DNA from: Planctomycetota bacterium
GTDB taxonomy: Bacteria; Planctomycetota; JAJSAM01
NCBI GenBank assembly: GCA_039714635.1
Contig: JBDLIY010000001.1
Span: forward strand, 1-32,715
Length of the DNA stretch: 32,715 bases
Direction: 5' to 3'
Notes under the pieces: generated by a model
Told to the model about the DNA's origin: nothing
Databases searched by the model: none
The model's input: the letters and a program-made list of their open reading frames with translations, nothing else
Shown here: one piece after another, positions 3,368 to 10,616 of the stretch
Position numbering within the stretch: position 1 is the stretch's first letter
Layout: each line of letters starts with the position of its first letter
Made by a program: the position numbers and the translations under genes

Positions 3368-4291
3368 ATGAGCTTGCTCTATGTCTTCTGTTACGCGTGC
3401 GTCGCCGTCTTCTTCGCCTGCGTCATCAAGCGCTTCCTCAAGCTGGCCCGACTGCCGGTCCACGTCCGCTGGGAACTCTACCCGGTGGCCCACGAACCCG
3501 GGGAGAAGGCGAAGTACGGAGGCTCCATCCTCGAAGAACCCGAGTGGTGGACGAAGCCGCGCCACAGCTCGAAGCTCAACGAGCTGAAGGTGATGGTGCC
3601 GGAGATCCTCCTCCTGCAGGGCGTGAAGGAGCACAACAAGTCCCACTGGGCGAAGACCTTCCCGTTCCACTTCGGGCTGTACCTGCTGATCGGCGCCACG
3701 ATGCTGCTCGTCCTCGGCGGCCTGTTCGGCGCGACCGGGCCGGGCGGCTTCTTCGGGACGCTGATCCCGCTCGCAGCCTACGCGGGTCTCGCGCTCGGCC
3801 TCTTCGGCGCGGTCGCGCTGCTCCACCGCCGGATGACCGACGAGGAGTACCGCGATTTCTCGCTGCCGGTGGACTTCTTCAACCTGGTCTTCTTCATCGC
3901 CGCGTTCGGCATCGCGCTGCTCGGGCAGATCACGGCCGACCCCGACTTCGCGAAGATGCGCGGGTTCTTCCACGGGCTGTTCACGTTCGACGGGGGAGCG
4001 CTCGGCGGGTTGCAGGTCGTCCAGGTGATCCTGCTCACGCTGCTGATGACGTACATCCCCTTCACCCACATGTCGCACTTCTTCACGAAGTACTTCATGT
4101 ATCACGACGTCCGGTGGAGCGATGAGCCGATGACGGCGGGGTCGAAGCTGGAGCGGCGGGTCGGCCGCGCGCTCGCGCTGAAGCCGACCTGGGCCGCGTC
4201 GCACATCGACGCCGCCGACGGGACGAAGACCTGGGTCGACGTCGCGACCTCGACCGGCATCCCGGAGGAGTCCGAGGGAGGTGAGTCATGA
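3368..4291 (+). CDS. NarI-family (DsrM/HmeC-like) membrane cytochrome b, second copy
   Basis: 307 aa with about 5 TM helices and conserved His in helices (FPFHFGLYLL; IPFTHMSHFFTKYF, compare DsrM FPFSKLMHLPGVF at 19944..20948). ATGA overlap with the following HdrD-like gene. Confidence 0.75.
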   Translation: MSLLYVFCYACVAVFFACVIKRFLKLARLPVHVRWELYPVAHEPGEKAKYGGSILEEPEWWTKPRHSSKLNELKVMVPEILLLQGVKEHNKSHWAKTFPFHFGLYLLIGATMLLVLGGLFGATGPGGFFGTLIPLAAYAGLALGLFGAVALLHRRMTDEEYRDFSLPVDFFNLVFFIAAFGIALLGQITADPDFAKMRGFFHGLFTFDGGALGGLQVVQVILLTLLMTYIPFTHMSHFFTKYFMYHDVRWSDEPMTAGSKLERRVGRALALKPTWAASHIDAADGTKTWVDVATSTGIPEESEGGES

Positions 4292-5889
4292 GCTACGACC
4301 GCGTGAAGCCCGAGGACATCTCGAAGGAGAGGGAGGAGTTCCTCAGCAAGACGCGCAAGGAGGAGTTGAAGGAACTGCCGGTGCTCGACGAGACGCCCGA
4401 GTTCGCGAATCTCAACGGCAAGGCGCTCGAGTGCGCCGGGAGCGACCTCGACGGCACCCTCGTTCTCAACATGCCGGAGCCGAAGGACGAGGCCGAGAAG
4501 AAGGCGCTGGTCGAGAAGTTCCTCGGCGGTGTCCAGAAGCTCTTCGAGGGTCACAACAACTGGACGTTCCTGCAGCCGCTGCTCCTCACGATGGACCACT
4601 GCGCCAAGTGCCACACGTGCTCCGACGCGTGCCACACCTACGAGATGAGCGGGCGGAACCCGATCTACCGGCCGGCCTACCGCACCGAGATCCTCCGGCG
4701 GATCTACAAGAAGTTCGTCAAGACGAACGGGAAGCTTCTCAGCAGCTTCCGCTCCGGGAAGTTGACGCTCAACTGGCGGACCGTGGCGCGGCTGGCCGAG
4801 CTGGCCTACCGCTGCAACCTCTGCCGCCGCTGCGCCCAGACCTGCCCGGTCGGCTGTGACAACGGCCTCGCGGCGCGCGAGATCCGGAAGGTCTTCTCCC
4901 AGGAGATGGACATCTACCCGAAGGAACTGCACGAGAACGGCTCCGTCCTGCAGATGAAGGTCGGCTCCTCGACCGGCATGAACGCGCTGGTCGTGAAGGA
5001 CAACGTCGAGTTCATCGACGAGGACATGACCGAGATCACGGGGATGAAGGTCGAGACCCCGTGGGACGTGGAGGGCGCGGACATCCTGCTCCTTCACAAC
5101 GCCGGCGAGATCATGGCCTGGCCGGAGAACGTCGGCGCGTTCGCGACGATCTTCGAGGCGGCGGGGCTCTCGTGGACTCTGTCCAGCGAGATCGCGGGCT
5201 ACGACTCGATCAACTACGGTCTCTTCTACGACGACGCCCAGTTCGCCCGGGTGGCGATCCACCACGCGTCCGCCGCGAAGAAGCTCGGCGTGAAGAAGAT
5301 CGTCATGGGCGAGTGCGGCCACGCGCACAAGGCGCTGACCGTCATCGCCGACCGTGTCCTGACGGGCGACCTGAACATCCCGCGCGAGAGCTCGATGGCG
5401 GTGCTCGAGGATCTGGTCTGCAACGACAAGCTGAAGCTCGACCCGTCGCGGAACGACTTCCCCGTGACGCTGCACGACCCGTGCAACATGGTGCGGCTGA
5501 TGGGGATCGTCACGCCCCAGCGTCGGGTCCTCGAGAAGATCGCGCCGCGGTTCCGCGAGATGAACCCGCACGGCGTGGAGAACTACTGCTGCGGGGGCGG
5601 GAGCGGCTTCGCGATCATGAGCGGCCACAACTTCGCGGACTGGCGCGCCCAGGTCTCGGGCCGGAAGAAGATCGAGCAGACGATTCTGGCCTTCGAGGAC
5701 GAGATGGACCCCTCGATCCGGAAGTACGTCGCCGCGCCCTGCAGCAACTGCAAGGGCCAGTACCGGGACATGATCTCGTACTACGACCTCTGGGAGAAGC
5801 ACAGCATCCTGTACGGCGGGCTCGTCGAGCTGATCGTCAACTGCATGGAAGACGTCAACCCCGGTTTCATCGACTGGGAGTGGAGCTGA
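4288..5889 (+). CDS. HdrD/DsrK-like iron-sulfur protein with CCG domain, second copy
   Basis: 533 aa. Two ferredoxin-type clusters (CAKCHTCSDACH; CNLCRRCAQTCP). CCG signature HDPC-x34-CCGGGSG-x49-CSNC. Collinear with DsrK at 20953..22575. Confidence 0.85.
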   Translation: MSYDRVKPEDISKEREEFLSKTRKEELKELPVLDETPEFANLNGKALECAGSDLDGTLVLNMPEPKDEAEKKALVEKFLGGVQKLFEGHNNWTFLQPLLLTMDHCAKCHTCSDACHTYEMSGRNPIYRPAYRTEILRRIYKKFVKTNGKLLSSFRSGKLTLNWRTVARLAELAYRCNLCRRCAQTCPVGCDNGLAAREIRKVFSQEMDIYPKELHENGSVLQMKVGSSTGMNALVVKDNVEFIDEDMTEITGMKVETPWDVEGADILLLHNAGEIMAWPENVGAFATIFEAAGLSWTLSSEIAGYDSINYGLFYDDAQFARVAIHHASAAKKLGVKKIVMGECGHAHKALTVIADRVLTGDLNIPRESSMAVLEDLVCNDKLKLDPSRNDFPVTLHDPCNMVRLMGIVTPQRRVLEKIAPRFREMNPHGVENYCCGGGSGFAIMSGHNFADWRAQVSGRKKIEQTILAFEDEMDPSIRKYVAAPCSNCKGQYRDMISYYDLWEKHSILYGGLVELIVNCMEDVNPGFIDWEWS

Positions 5890-5893
5890 TCCG

Positions 5894-6295
5894 ATGGCGC
5901 ACATCCTGATCGTGGACGACGAAGCGGACGTCATCACCTATCTCTCCGCGATGCTCACGGACGCGGGCCACCGGGTGACGACGGCGAACAACGGCGCCGA
6001 GGCGATGGACGCGGTGAAGGCCGACCGGCCGGACCTCGTCTCCCTCGACATGTCCATGCCGGAGAAGTCGGGCGTGCGGTTCTACCGGGAGATGAAGGAG
6101 GACGCGGACCTGGCGGGCGTCCCGATCGTGATCGTCACCGGCGTGACGAACCCGTGGTCGGGCCGCGGCGGCGAGGGGACGTTCGAGGGCTTCATCTCGT
6201 CCCGGAAGCAGGTCCCGCCGCCGGAGGGCTTCTTCGAGAAGCCGGTAAAGAAGGACGCCTACCTGGCGAAGGTGGCGGAGCTGACCGGAGCCTGA
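5894..6295 (+). CDS. stand-alone CheY-like response regulator receiver
   Basis: 133 aa: ILIVDDE acidic pocket, SLDMSMP phospho-acceptor Asp, IVIVTGV Thr, FFEKPV Lys. No output domain. Starts 5 nt after the HdrD-like gene. Confidence 0.85.
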   Translation: MAHILIVDDEADVITYLSAMLTDAGHRVTTANNGAEAMDAVKADRPDLVSLDMSMPEKSGVRFYREMKEDADLAGVPIVIVTGVTNPWSGRGGEGTFEGFISSRKQVPPPEGFFEKPVKKDAYLAKVAELTGA

Positions 6296-6296
6296 C

Positions 6297-6333
6297 AATC
6301 TGCAAATCGGGGTCTGACCCCGATTTGCAGATT
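6297..6333. terminator. perfect 17-bp stem / 3-nt loop hairpin between convergent genes (bidirectional terminator candidate)
   Basis: AATCTGCAAATCGGGGT-ctg-ACCCCGATTTGCAGATT read directly. It fills the whole gap between the receiver stop (6295) and the NtrC-type stop (6333..6335). No clear U-tract. Confidence 0.6.
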
Positions 6334-7700
6334 CAGTCCACCAGGACGTTCAGTTCCTTGATCTTTTCCCACAGGCGCTTGCGCGAGATGCCCAGGAGGT
6401 CGGCGGCGCGCGTGCGGTTGCCGCCCGTGCGCCCCAGCGCCTTGCCGATGATCATCCGCTCCGTCTCGCGGACATGGCAGTGGATGTCCAACTCGTCCGG
6501 GCAACTGCCCTTCAACTCCTCGCGGTACTGGCGGAGGTCCGGAGGGAGGTCGGCGATCCCGATCTTCTTCGTCCGGCAGAACATCACCGCGCGCTCGATC
6601 GTGTTCTCCAACTGTCGCACGTTGCCCGGCCAGCCGTACGCCTTCAGCAGACGGACACAGGTCGGGGCGATCTCCGCCACCTGCTTCCCCTGGTTGAACG
6701 AGGCCTTCCGCATGAAGTGCTCGACCAGCAGCGGGATGTCCTCCGGCCGGTCGCGCAGCGCCGGCGCCTCCAGCGTCACGACGTTCAGGCGGTAATACAG
6801 GTCCTCCCGGAACCTCCCCTCGTCGACCATGGTCTTCAGGTCGAAACGGGTGGCGCACACGACGCGCGTGTGCGGTTCGATCGTCGTCGTGCCGCCGACG
6901 CGCTCGAAGGCGTGCTCCTGCAGGACGCGGAGCAGCTTCACCTGCACGACGGGGGAGATGTCGCCGATCTCGTCGAGGAAGATCGTTCCCTCGTGCGCGA
7001 GCTCGAACCGGCCGATCTTCCGCTGGTGGGCGCCCGTGAAAGCGCCCTTCTCATGGCCGAAAAGCTCCGCTTCGAGGAGCGTCTCGGGCAGGGAGGGGCA
7101 ACTCACCTTCACGAAGGGGCCGGAGCCGTGCTCACTCTGGTCGTGGATCGCCCGGGCCACCAGCTCCTTGCCGGTCCCGCTCTCCCCGGTGATCAGGATT
7201 GTCGCGTGGTTGGTGGCGACGATCTCGATCTGGCCCAGGAGCTCCCGGATCTGGCGGCTCTCCCCGACGATCGGGTGGTCGACGCGCTCCTGACGGAGGA
7301 CGAAGTTCTCCTCACGGAGCCGGATGAGGTCCTCATACCGCTCGAGCCGCTTCACGAGGTCCTCGGTGCGGAACGGCTTCGTGAGGAACTCGTTGGAGCC
7401 GAGCTTCATCGCCTCGACGGCCGTCTCCACGGTGCCGTGGGCCGTCATGATGATGACCGGGATCCCGGTGTCCCCGGCGCGGATCTCCTCCAGGACGGCC
7501 ATCCCGTCGACGCCGGGCATGACGAGGTCGAGGAGGATCAGGTCGAACCGCTCTTCCCGCCAGGCGTTGAGCCCGGCGCGACCGTCCTTCTCCGCGCGGA
7601 CGTGATAGCCCGCGTCCGTGAGGAGATCCGTGAGGGACTCCCGCAGGAGCGCCTCGTCTTCCATCATCAGGATGCGGATGGGCCGGGACCTCGGAGGCAT
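6333..7700 (-). CDS. sigma54-dependent NtrC-family response regulator (REC + AAA+ + Fis-type HTH)
   Basis: ORF 6333..7820(-). I prefer the start at ATG 7700 (MPPRSRPIRILMMEDE), 1 nt after the kinase stop. Motifs: LLDLVMPGVDG receiver Asp, GESGTGKE Walker A, GHEKGAFTGA (GAFTGA sigma54-contact motif), C-terminal AADLLGISRKRLWEKIKEL HTH. Confidence 0.92.
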   Translation of the reverse strand: MPPRSRPIRILMMEDEALLRESLTDLLTDAGYHVRAEKDGRAGLNAWREERFDLILLDLVMPGVDGMAVLEEIRAGDTGIPVIIMTAHGTVETAVEAMKLGSNEFLTKPFRTEDLVKRLERYEDLIRLREENFVLRQERVDHPIVGESRQIRELLGQIEIVATNHATILITGESGTGKELVARAIHDQSEHGSGPFVKVSCPSLPETLLEAELFGHEKGAFTGAHQRKIGRFELAHEGTIFLDEIGDISPVVQVKLLRVLQEHAFERVGGTTTIEPHTRVVCATRFDLKTMVDEGRFREDLYYRLNVVTLEAPALRDRPEDIPLLVEHFMRKASFNQGKQVAEIAPTCVRLLKAYGWPGNVRQLENTIERAVMFCRTKKIGIADLPPDLRQYREELKGSCPDELDIHCHVRETERMIIGKALGRTGGNRTRAADLLGISRKRLWEKIKELNVLVD

Positions 7701-7701
7701 C

Positions 7702-8916
7702 TCAGTCTTCTCCGTCGGGGCCCGGTGCGGCGGGCAGGCGGATCGTGAGCCGCGCGCCGCCCTCGGGCCGGTTCGAAGCCTCGATCGTACCCCCGTGGGC
7801 CTGCACGATGCCAAGAGCAACGGACAGCCCGAGTCCGGTTCCCTCGCCGACCTCCTTCGTCGTATAGAAAGGCTCGAAGATGCTCTCGAGCTCCTCGACG
7901 GGCAGGCCGGGGCCCGTGTCCTCGAGGCAGACGACCGCGTTGTCCTCCTCGTCGGTGCTCGTGGTGGTCGTGAGGATGCCGCCGTCCGCCATCGCCTGGA
8001 AGGCGTTCATGGAGAGGTTCAGGAACAGCTGGTTCAGGAGGTCCGTGTCGCCGTCCACCAGCGGGATCTCTCCGAACCGGGTGACGATGTGCATCCGGGA
8101 CGAGCGGTACTGCAGCCGCGCGAGGTGGGAGACGTCCTGGACCATGGCGTTCAGGTCCACGAGGTCGCGCTGGCCGGAGGGCTGACGGGCGAAGCGCAGG
8201 AGTTGGTGAACGATCTCGCCGATGCGCTCCAGGCCGGACTTCATCAGCACCATGTAGTCCTTGTACCGCCGGGATTCCGGGTTGAGGTGGCCGATCACCT
8301 CCAGGGCGGTCAGGATCCCGCCGACGGGGTTGTTGATCTCGTGGGCCACGCCGGCGGAGAGGCGGCCGAGGGCGGCGAACTTCTCGATGTTCGCCTGGCG
8401 CTGGTTCGCCTCCCTCGACCGTTCCCGGGTCCGGCGGATGGCCTGCACCATCTCGTTGAAGTGCCGGCCGAGCTCCCCGATTTCGTCCTCCCGCTCCACC
8501 GGCACTTCGACGGAGAGGTCTCCGGCCTGGACCTCCTCCATCTTCCGGGCGAGACGCGAGACGGGGTCGAGCCACTTGCGCGCGAGCCAGCCCACGAAGA
8601 GGGCGGCGAGGCCGGCGCAGAGGACCGAGAGGCTCACGGCGACGATCGCGACCGTGTCCAGCCCGACCGTGCCCGGGCGGCAGAGAACGATGACGACGGT
8701 GGCGATGAGCAGCCCCGGCACGAGAGCCAGGAAGCCCGCGGCGAGCTGGTATTTCGTGGCGCTGCGTTTCAGATCGGACCTCCGGGCTCCGGCGGAATAT
8801 CGCGTGAACCGGGAAGATTTCCCCGGCCGCTTCCCATGCTCCGACCGGGAGGATCGTGGTCCCCGGCCGGGCCGGATTCGCCCACCGGCGCGCCCTGCCG
8901 TCCAGAGGGGCAACAT
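7702..8916 (-). CDS. sensor histidine kinase (2 TM, HAMP, HisKA, HATPase) lacking an extracytoplasmic sensor domain
   Basis: ORF 7702..8952(-). Two TM helices are separated only by CRPGTVGLDT. HAMP region (EDEIGELGRHFNEMV), H-box SAGVAHEINNPV, N-box NLSMNAFQAM, G-boxes EDTGPGL and GTGLGLS. Start uncertain: ATG 8916 or TTG 8952. The N-terminus is Arg-rich. Confidence 0.85.
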   Translation of the reverse strand: MLPLWTAGRAGGRIRPGRGPRSSRSEHGKRPGKSSRFTRYSAGARRSDLKRSATKYQLAAGFLALVPGLLIATVVIVLCRPGTVGLDTVAIVAVSLSVLCAGLAALFVGWLARKWLDPVSRLARKMEEVQAGDLSVEVPVEREDEIGELGRHFNEMVQAIRRTRERSREANQRQANIEKFAALGRLSAGVAHEINNPVGGILTALEVIGHLNPESRRYKDYMVLMKSGLERIGEIVHQLLRFARQPSGQRDLVDLNAMVQDVSHLARLQYRSSRMHIVTRFGEIPLVDGDTDLLNQLFLNLSMNAFQAMADGGILTTTTSTDEEDNAVVCLEDTGPGLPVEELESIFEPFYTTKEVGEGTGLGLSVALGIVQAHGGTIEASNRPEGGARLTIRLPAAPGPDGED

Positions 8917-9029
8917 CCGTGCCGGGGACGATCCGACGGTCCGCGGAATCAAGTGCGGAATAGTCCCGGTCCAGCTGTTGATCCGTCCCCAGCCGAGGGC
9001 GGAAACGGGGAATCAGGGCCGAGGGACGC

Positions 9030-9110
9030 AAAACTGCTCTAAATCATGAGATCCACAATGCTTAGATCCTAAATCGGACCTATCTGGTACGGAAACGTAA
9101 CATCCATGCA
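9030..9110. promoter_or_regulatory. AT-richer island with short repeats in the kinase/dsrA divergent intergenic region
   Basis: Visibly lower GC than the surroundings. CTAAATC occurs at 9039 and 9069 (30 nt apart), AGATCC at 9049 and 9064, an imperfect inverted repeat AGATCC-N6-GGACCT at 9064..9081, and CGGAAACG at about 9000 and 9090. Confidence 0.3.
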
Positions 9111-9194
9111 ACTCCTTTCCACACAAGGAGTAGAGGTGTTCCACGTCCATCCGCGGGAATCGGGGCTTCCCGGCCCCGCCTCCGAGGGGGGTAT

Positions 9195-9210
9195 TGGCTT
9201 GGTGTTTGCG
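9195..9210 (+). promoter_or_regulatory. candidate sigma54 (-24/-12) promoter upstream of dsrA
   Basis: TGGCTT-ggtgt-TTGCG matches the TGGCAC-N5-TTGCW consensus with correct GG/GC spacing. It lies about 205 nt upstream of the dsrA ATG and next to a divergent NtrC-type activator gene. Confidence 0.35.
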
Positions 9211-9413
9211 CATTTGCGCGCCGTTCGGGCGACTTATGCCGCCGCCGGACCGATCAGATCGGCTCGCCGGGCGTCTTTCAGGGTTGTGCCTGTCCGCCGA
9301 GCTTCATCTGTCTGCCGCATCTTCGGTCCGGCGTCGGACTCATCCGTAACTGGAACGGCCGGTCATTCCCACGAGGACCGGTCGCCATTCGAGGGAGCGA
9401 GGAGGATTGCGGC

Positions 9414-10616
9414 ATGGCGGAACTACCGGAAACTCCCCTTCTAGATGAACTGGAGAAGGGACCCTGGCCGAGCTTCGTGACGGAGATCAAGACCGCCGCG
9501 AAGCGGACGGAATCGGCCAAGGACCTGCTCGGCCAGCTCGAGCGGTCCTACAGAGAGCGGATCGGCCACTGGAAGCACGGCGGGATCGTCGGCGTCCTCG
9601 GGTACGGGGGCGGCGTCATCGGCCGTTACTCGGACCTCCCGGACGACTTCCCGGGGATCTCCCACTTCCACACCCTCCGCATCAACCAGCCCGCGGGCTG
9701 GTTCTACACCTCGGAGGCCCTGCGCGGTCTCTGCGACATCTGGGAAGAGCACGGGTCCGGCCTGACGAACATGCACGGCTCGACCGGTGACATCATCCTG
9801 CTCGGAACGTCCACTCCCGAGCTGGAGCCCACCTTCAAGGCGCTGACGGATCTGGGGTTCGACCTCGGCGGCTCCGGCTCCGACGTGCGGACGCCCAGCT
9901 GCTGCCTCGGTCAGGCGCGCTGCGAGTGGGCCTGCTACGACACGATGGCCCTCACGCAGGACCTGACGATGTCGTTCCAGGACGAACTCCACCGTCCGAT
10001 GTTCCCGTACAAGTTCAAGTTCAAGATGGCGGGCTGCCCGAACGACTGCGTCGCTTCGATCGCTCGCGCGGACATGAGCATCATCGGGACCTGGCGGGAC
10101 GAGATCCAGCAGGACGACGCCGAAGTGAAGAAGTACGTCGACGACGGCCTGGACATCGTCCAGGACGTCATCCTGAACTGCCCCGGCAAGTGCATGGCCT
10201 GGGATGGCGAGAAGCTCGCCATCGAAAACGGCTCCTGCCGCAAGTGCATGCACTGCATCAACGTGATGCCGAAGGCGCTGGCCCCCGGGAAGGACCGGGG
10301 CGCGACGATCCTGCTCGGCTCCAAGGCCCCGATCGTCGAGGGCGCGCTGCTCTCGTCGGTGCTGGTGCCCTTCTGGAAGCCGGAAGCCCCCTACGAGGAC
10401 CTCAAGGAACTCGTGGAGGAGATCTGGGACGTCTGGGGCGAGGAAGGCAAGAACCGTGAGCGCGTCGGTGAGTTCATCCAGCGCGTCGGCCTCGGCAACT
10501 TCCTCGACGCGATCGGGCTCGACCCGGAGCCGGAGATGGTCGCCTTCCCGCGTGAAAACCCGTACGTGTTCTACGAGATGGACGAGGACGAGGACGAGGA
10601 GGACGACGATGAGTGA
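9414..10616 (+). CDS. dsrA: dissimilatory sulfite reductase alpha subunit
   Basis: 400 aa. Siroheme/[4Fe-4S] motifs CLGQARC (Cx5C) and CPNDC (Cx3C); ferredoxin-insert cysteines NCPGKC and CRKCMHC. Typical DsrA N-terminus [28 protein letters not shown]. Unusual acidic tail [13 protein letters not shown]. Confidence 0.97.

Follow-up and report, generated by a model that had tools for sequence, protein, structure and literature searches.

How is the expression of the genes for dissimilatory sulfate/sulfite reduction controlled in an uncultured planctomycete, and does the regulatory gene pair that lies divergently beside them take part in it? The question is raised by contig JBDLIY010000001.1 (here, C1) of the Planctomycetota assembly GCA_039714635.1, a 4.46-Mb genome in 782 contigs with 69% G+C and 93% completeness; we analyzed the contig as one stretch of 32,715 nucleotides (nt), here called the window. 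In it, dsrA (positions 9414 to 10616, plus strand; Pfam NIR_SIR and NIR_SIR_ferr) lies back to back with two minus-strand genes, one encoding a membrane histidine kinase (7702 to about 8772) and the other a 455-amino-acid (aa) NtrC-type sigma-54 enhancer-binding response regulator (6333 to 7700; here, the activator). An earlier reading of the bare sequence (here, the original prediction) held that dsrA may be sigma-54 dependent and controlled by this neighboring pair. This proposal is supported by an rpoN gene in the genome, a top-ranking promoter box, the conservation of that box, synteny, an upstream repeat, and the recurrence of these elements at apr/sat genes. We consider it likely that the pair is a classical two-component, sigma-54 switch for dissimilatory sulfate/sulfite respiration, acting via a promoter and an enhancer. 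Gene content, promoter quality, the presence of rpoN, and the conservation of promoter, repeat, and synteny were computed directly.

The predicted sigma-54 promoter of dsrA

The translated activator contains the GAFTGA motif, as had been reported, and is composed of the Pfam domains Response_reg (2e-31), Sigma54_activat (8e-68), AAA_lid, and HTH_8 (6e-14), the last being a Fis-type helix-turn-helix. A search of the genome for rpoN, which had been suggested as a check, returned an intact copy, namely, a complete 502-aa open reading frame (ORF) on contig C354 with all three domains (Sigma54_AID, CBD, and DBD, which are activator interacting, core binding, and DNA binding, respectively). Between the kinase and dsrA, the plus strand reads TGGCTT (9195 to 9200), GGTGT (9201 to 9205), and TTGCG (9206 to 9210), so that the claimed box is present within TTGGCTTGGTGTTTGCGC (9194 to 9211), the -24/-12 promoter predicted for the dsr operon. 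The GG at 9196 to 9197 and the GC at 9208 to 9209 have the canonical spacing (TGGC-N7-TTGC frame). Because shuffling gives 0.58 expected occurrences of this bare 8-base pattern per window, the pattern alone proves nothing.

More can be learned from the score of the whole element. With an approximate sigma-54 position weight matrix, based on the published consensus, TTGGCTTGGTGTTTGCGC obtains 15.5 bits, which places it 7th among 8.9 million positions genome-wide; nothing else in the window exceeds 12 bits. The nine top-scoring sites of the genome are all intergenic, as labeled by a rough GC3-based gene caller that mis-called dsrB and was used for that labeling only. The genome has 8 copies of the canonical TGGCAC-N5-TTGC, whereas other spacings yield 0 to 4, which suggests that the organism makes use of sigma-54. 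A sigma-70 promoter for dsrA was considered and discarded because no sigma-70-like site was detected in 8700 to 9450 on either strand.

The element is conserved among related dsr loci. Ten dsrA leaders were scanned (the window, G003, L194, L195, L196, L197, L198, L199, L200, and L033; these are our handles for genomes and loci, L196 being a near-identical copy of L195 and L033 a contig of G002), and in all ten the best sigma-54 site was the same element, TTGGC[TG]T[GA]NNGTTTGCG, located 153 to 227 nt before the ATG. The dsrA locus of G001 likewise has it, so that the box is kept in 10 of 10 other dsrA loci of the clade. TTGGC-N6-GTTTGC is invariant across 12 aligned promoters (8 of dsrA and 4 of sat/aprB); when these are anchored on the motif, the information content is 1.52 bits per column inside it and 0.35 to 0.39 in the 60-nt flanks, the rest of the dsrA intergenic DNA being essentially unalignable between relatives. 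A chance match in a long GC-rich spacer, for which the frequency of the bare pattern in shuffles might speak, is effectively refuted by these conservation data and is highly improbable: the site ranks 7th genome-wide, it persists in the other dsrA loci of the clade between unalignable flanks, and the same box is found on sat/aprB (see below).

From the promoter geometry, the dsrA transcript is predicted to start at about 9221, placed 12 nt after the -12 C, which gives a leader of about 193 nt (9221 to 9413, plus strand) with an AGGAGG ribosome-binding site at 9400 to 9405. Of the stems described by the original prediction, the hairpin CCGGTC-N11-GACCGG exists (9359 to 9381), but a signal was not detectable in it: the fold of the leader is not exceptional (z = -1.06), and no Rfam family reached threshold, the best being Moco (21.5 bits) and M23 (23.6 bits), neither of which matched the correct strand. 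The leader, like the hairpin, is well conserved with the closest relative (L194) only. On these grounds, a riboregulator in the leader was rejected.

It might still be argued that TTGGC-N6-GTTTGC, together with the upstream repeat described below, is a repressor operator, an unusual sigma-70-type promoter, or an RNA-level signal. The dsrA start is predicted from promoter geometry only, the -24 half (TTGGCTT or TTGGCGT) differs from TGGCAC at two positions, and promoter rules in Planctomycetota are poorly known. However, what is invariant is precisely the GG, the GC, and the canonical bases next to them, at canonical spacing; the element lies upstream of, and not within, any conserved RNA structure; and both the missing sigma-70-like site and the genomic enrichment of the canonical sigma-54 pattern speak against such an explanation, which we regard as improbable. 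We infer that 9194 to 9211 serves as a sigma-54-dependent promoter of dsrA in vivo.

Synteny, candidate enhancer, and probable regulon

In a large protein collection, the activator ortholog group spans 56 to 90% identity and is followed by a drop to paralogs of about 50%. Among 40 related genomes, G003 alone has an ortholog (73% identity), the remaining matches being paralogs of about 46%. All 8 orthologs compared share one C-terminal recognition helix, ISRKRLWEK(I/M)KE, from which the 6 closest paralogs of the genome differ. A divergent kinase-dsr layout exists in eight other genomes or contigs. In G003, dsrC-L-N-D-B-A is divergent from the kinase and activator genes, and the pair is divergent from dsrN-D-B-A in L194 (88%), L195/L196 (74%), L197 (73%), L198 (67%), and L199 (68%). 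L200 (56%) has the same layout with fragmented dsrAB, and in G001 dsrA is divergent from the kinase gene, inside which the fetched stretch ends. A metagenome scan with DsrA found no relative above 79% identity.

An inverted repeat, GTTAC-N6-GTAAC, was first spotted in a promoter-anchored alignment of the dsrA regions. With no more than one mismatch, it occurs once per dsrA region at every locus with an adjacent kinase and as a single copy in 11 of 11 dsrA and sat/aprB promoter regions, while other half-site spacings yield 0 to 1 matches over the 11 regions and shuffling leaves 0.06 regions with a repeat. Genome-wide, there are just 12 such sites, 10 of them intergenic. At dsrA, the distance from the start of the repeat to the -24 GG downstream is 167 nt in L194, 208 to 211 nt in L199 and L198, and 221 to 222 nt in L197, G003, L195, and G001. 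A second site, GTAGC-N6-GTAAC, is found about 100 nt farther upstream in 7 of the 11 regions. The candidate enhancer of the window (9086 to 9112, no strand assigned) comprises the repeat and a third half-site, GCAAC (9108 to 9112), one helical turn beyond it. This conserved element starts at the 3' edge (9086) of an AT-rich island (9030 to 9085); the island itself was rejected as the enhancer because the CTAAATC/AGATCC repeats within it have no conserved counterpart even in L194.

The arsenite regulator AioR, a sigma-54 activator, has a footprinted site, GTTCGGATTTCCGAAC, and the consensus GTT-N10-AAC (PMC5335332). As far as sequence goes, GTTAC-N6-GTAAC fits the AioR frame and is conserved in pattern, which supports the repeat as an activator site of this class but not the choice among the activators of the genome. 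We infer that the neighboring activator would bind the repeat at 9086 to 9101.

Promoter and repeat recur at other genes of the pathway. On contig C245 (locus L201), TTGGCTCGGTGTTTGCCA (1189 to 1206), which ranks 5th among the sigma-54 sites of the genome and differs little from the dsrA promoter, is located about 242 nt before aprB, and a repeat match, GTTCC-N6-GTAAC (892 to 907), lies between sat and aprB-aprA-(CxxCxxCC)-qmoA, its start being 299 nt upstream of the promoter GG. The sat/apr regions of G003, L211 (a contig of L195), and L212 (a contig of L198) were not used in defining the motifs and were examined afterwards. G003 has the promoter TTGGCGCACCGTTTGCCG about 100 nt before sat, with the repeat starting 224 nt upstream of the GG; L211 has TTGGCTCAGCGTTTGCCG 105 nt before sat, with the repeat starting 235 nt upstream; and L212 has TTGGCGCAGTGTTTGCCC 223 nt before aprB, with an exact repeat starting 210 nt upstream. 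All three regions have a GTAGC-type site farther upstream. Within these loci of 13 to 21 kb, the repeat is confined to the dsrA and sat/aprB promoters, and the kinase-activator pair is situated between the dsr and sat/apr/qmo operons. These data support a regulon that extends past dsr to apr/sat/qmo.

Several observations weigh against control of dsrA by the neighboring activator, and some of them favor a different arrangement, in which the dsrA promoter is sigma-54 dependent but is driven by another enhancer-binding protein, the pair controlling something else, such as its own operon or the DsrMK-like operon on its other side. The genome has 25 sigma-54 activator genes. Exact copies of GTTAC-N6-GTAAC occur about 100 nt upstream of sigma-54 promoters at two unrelated genes on contigs C216 (two copies) and C253; thus, the repeat is found at more than sulfur genes and could also serve another activator. 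The G002 locus L033 has kept the promoter with neither repeat nor kinase next to dsrA, and no activator ortholog was found in this 79%-complete genome. Moreover, a sigma-54-like box faces the kinase itself. The repeat of the window, GGTAC-GGAAAC-GTAAC (GGTACGGAAACGTAAC; 9086 to 9101, 16 bp), has one mismatch to GTTAC-N6-GTAAC, begins at a shorter distance from the -24 GG (110 nt, compared with about 210 to 235 nt in most relatives), and is without a second, GTAGC-type site. In L193, the closest activator relative (90% identity), the pair faces a DsrC-like gene across a short spacer without a promoter. Finally, the weight matrix is approximate, and the relatives share common ancestry and are not independent samples.

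On the other hand, the pair adjoins dsrA in orthologs down to 56 to 67% identity despite changing neighbors, and it sits between both proposed target operons in G003, L211, and L212. The repeat is present wherever the kinase adjoins dsrA and absent from the sole dsrA locus without the kinase, and upstream of the DsrMK-like operon, no sigma-54 site scores above 8 bits. We regard a different activator of dsrA as unlikely, though it is the alternative to be taken most seriously, and favor the neighboring pair as the probable regulator.

The two other regions with the repeat (C216, locus L202, 2449 to 2592; C253, locus L203, 187 to 323) lie at genes for paralogous exported HEAT-repeat proteins with a common N-terminal sequence, AHGGAYRGPAGEVPPG. 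Strong sigma-54 promoters (TTGGTATCACCTTTGCGA; TCGGAATCACTCTTGCGT) precede both genes. A PrkA kinase gene is directly upstream of the HEAT-repeat gene on C216. The protein encoded there was rejected as a conserved member of the regulon, its G003 homologs (30 to 34% identity) having neither promoter nor repeat.

Near-perfect sigma-54 sites (e.g., ATGGCACAAGCATTGCAA) were also seen 100 to 300 nt upstream of dsrA in loci of other phyla (L070, L148, L161, L041, L152, L185, and L095, from, e.g., Thermoanaerobaculia, Acidobacteria, and Spirochaetales), with no activator gene within 4 to 5 kb upstream. Over 151 dsrA loci, sites of at least 12 bits number 9 in sense and 1 in antisense orientation, with 0 in shuffles. 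Because of this sense-strand excess, sigma-54 control of dsrA may recur outside the clade.

The kinase and its input

Pfam, sequence, and ortholog alignment describe the kinase as two hydrophobic helices separated by a loop of 9 residues (CRPGTVGLD), in agreement with the earlier estimate of about 10, followed by HAMP, HisKA, and HATPase_c domains. Long kinases of 476 to 499 aa (G003, L195, L198, and L199) have about 125 to 135 residues between the first and second transmembrane (TM) helices, and this periplasmic segment shows weak single-Cache similarity. In an alignment of eight orthologs, the short kinases without it are those of the window, L193, and L194 and, separately, L197. The window kinase retains K-Y-Q-L, an N-terminal motif of the long kinases, so that its shortness points to an internal deletion. 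The alignment thus identifies the short loop as a derived state, that is, a secondary loss of the periplasmic sensor domain.

In L198, L199, and L200 (about 3570 to 4530), a gene for a periplasmic binding protein (PF12974) is located immediately upstream of the long kinase gene. The best solved relatives of the L198 protein are HtxB/PtxB (about 2e-10), ArrX (1e-8), and, weakly, AioX (5e-3), which bind oxyanions; ArrX and AioX are the first components of sensor systems (PMC5908839). No homolog of the binding protein was found at an E value of 1e-5 or below in G000 to G003, the four genomes of the window family. The likely history runs from a system of three components, through one of two components in which the kinase still had its periplasmic domain, to the sensor-less kinase. 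With the periplasmic input domain deleted, the signal must reach the kinase by way of the membrane, a partner protein, or the HAMP/cytoplasmic part.

A candidate partner is the DsrM-like/DsrK-like/receiver operon (3368 to 6295, plus strand), which is seen next to the pair in the window and L193 only; it is not adjacent in L197, the other short-kinase locus for which downstream genes are covered. The best NCBIfam model for the orphan receiver of this operon (5894 to 6295) is the DVU0259 (DivK-like) receiver family, with 90 bits versus a cutoff of 160. In L193, DsrM/DsrK-like and receiver modules are present on both sides of the pair, one of them with its own Cache-HAMP-PAS kinase, and the DsrC-like gene that the pair faces (4101 to 4760) encodes a 219-aa protein with a DsrC domain and a weak LexA-type DNA-binding match. 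The gene map of the window is based on an ORF listing and Pfam scans. On its other side, from 9414 onward, dsrA, dsrB, dsrD, dsrN, a DsrL-like gene, dsrC, sirohaem synthesis genes, dsrMKJOP, and a TauE exporter gene are co-oriented on the plus strand.

Three start codons are available to the kinase, CTG at 8772, ATG at 8916, and TTG at 8952. The CTG is the probable start because the resulting N-terminus and that of the long kinases are homologous (MLKARSARYQL versus LKRSATKYQL), GGAGG is located six nt before this codon, and L194 has an in-frame stop; ATG 8916 and TTG 8952 are disfavored, the extension being nonconserved and interrupted by that stop. The original prediction had called the dsrA upstream region, at 460 nt, unusually long. 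This value rests on TTG 8952, and CTG 8772 gives 641 nt, within the 533 to 802 nt of relatives. The short kinases of the window (8770 to 8790), L193, and L194 all apparently start at a conserved CTG (CTG AAA). In L194, a 44-codon upstream ORF begins in a block resembling 8907 to 8924 of the window, and its TGA overlaps the kinase CTG, which suggests translational coupling of the kinase.

That block is 18/18 identical between the window and L194 amid poorly conserved DNA. It contains the sigma-54-like site facing the kinase, CGGCACGGATGTTGC (8907 to 8924, minus strand; 8.9 bits), which is present in the window and L194 only and absent from more distant relatives; the peptides read from the ATG within the block are not conserved. 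With weak to moderate confidence, this site may be an autoregulatory sigma-54 promoter, providing positive autoregulation of the kinase.

Proposed mechanism and known systems

In the mechanism that we propose, the membrane kinase (7702 to about 8772) would phosphorylate the activator (6333 to 7700), which would bind the inverted repeat GGTAC-N6-GTAAC at 9086 to 9101. DNA looping and ATP hydrolysis by the activator would open the promoter at 9194 to 9211, and transcription would proceed from about 9221 through the leader into dsrABDN and the following genes. The same activator would probably drive the aprBA-qmo operon of C245 via TTGGCTCGGTGTTTGCCA and the repeat copy there. The ancestral kinase would have been periplasm sensing, and in the most distant loci it would work with an oxyanion-binding periplasmic protein, like AioXSR/ArrXSR.

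The AioXSR, ArrXSR, and ArxXSR systems consist of an oxyanion-binding periplasmic protein, a kinase, and a sigma-54 activator and control arsenite oxidase/arsenate reductase operons (PMC5908839, PMC7565993, PMC5335332). As in these systems, a dedicated kinase and an NtrC-type activator are encoded beside the respiratory operon that they are thought to activate via sigma-54; the repeat of the window clade has the 16-bp frame GTT-N10-AAC of AioXSR, a resemblance seen in sequence; and L198, L199, and L200 encode a PtxB-like periplasmic binding protein before the kinase. The differences from AioXSR/ArrXSR concern (i) the targets, which are dsrABDN, aprBA/sat, and qmo and not an arsenic oxidoreductase operon, and (ii) the input, as the window kinase is without a periplasmic domain and G000 to G003 are without a binding-protein homolog. 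Neither NCBIfam models nor plasmid tblastn showed the activator to be particularly close to AioR in sequence; as to whether annotated AioR genes are its nearest named relatives, tblastn was uninformative, the top matches being ZraR, AtoC, and generic regulators at 40 to 46% identity.

The domain architecture of both proteins, the GAFTGA motif, the palindromic candidate enhancer upstream, and the -24/-12 promoter are like those of NtrB/NtrC-type control (glnAp2, ZraSR, and AtoSC). AtoC, NtrC, and ZraR are the best family or structure matches of the activator, and the closest solved structures are NtrC-family regulators (4e-100), yet the scores are far below every named NCBIfam equivalog cutoff (AtoC, 464/714 bits; NtrC, 405/559; ZraR, 403/760). 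Moreover, the regulon is different, and the kinase is membrane bound with a HAMP domain, whereas NtrB is soluble. Intramembrane-sensing kinases of the BceS/LiaS type have two TM helices with an outside linker of fewer than 25 residues and sense within the membrane or via a partner protein. The input of the window kinase, two TM helices and a 9-residue loop, is of this kind. Unlike BceS/LiaS, however, this kinase derives by deletion from a periplasm-sensing kinase of another lineage, its partner regulator is a sigma-54 activator and not of the OmpR or NarL type, and it has no partner transporter or LiaF-like gene, the adjacent DsrMK-like/receiver operon being the sole candidate partner.

The sulfate reducer Desulfovibrio vulgaris Hildenborough has many sigma-54 activators over energy-metabolism operons (PMC4641369). 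Searching the available text of that regulome study for dsr or sulfite reductase gave no match, nor was an operon of sulfate reduction noted there; in contrast to that regulome as described, the core sulfate-respiration pathway itself carries predicted sigma-54 promoters in the window clade. Full-text literature searches found no sigma-54 link to dsr, apr, or sat, nor was one found in a 2025 cross-phylum survey of sigma-54 regulons, a paper on peatland Acidobacteria, or a 2023 review of dsrAB-carrying genomes. The mechanism itself is classical; the novelty lies in its predicted target, which is the core pathway of sulfate respiration, and in the loss of the sensor input during evolution.

The regulation of dissimilatory sulfate/sulfite reduction genes is poorly known, above all in uncultured dsrAB lineages. 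By naming the proteins (a dedicated sensor and its activator) and the DNA sites (a promoter and an enhancer) that are probably involved, the present analysis makes this question tractable, and the two motifs are usable for spotting coregulated genes in related genomes. From such a switch it is predicted that these organisms respire sulfate only upon a signal. The relatives with a periplasmic binding protein offer a route to the signal: its ligand, perhaps a sulfur oxyanion, would reveal the ancestral one. A more far-reaching version, which we offer as speculation and think rather doubtful, is that the pair is the master switch of the pathway in an uncultured Planctomycetota clade, is of AioXSR-type descent, and in the window lineage has a kinase cued by the DsrM2K2-receiver module. 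If the cue is of this kind, expression of the pathway would be tied to the redox state of the membrane and not to an external oxyanion. If the pair is a master switch over dsr, aprBA-qmo here, and sat in relatives, sulfate respiration would be induced rather than constitutive.

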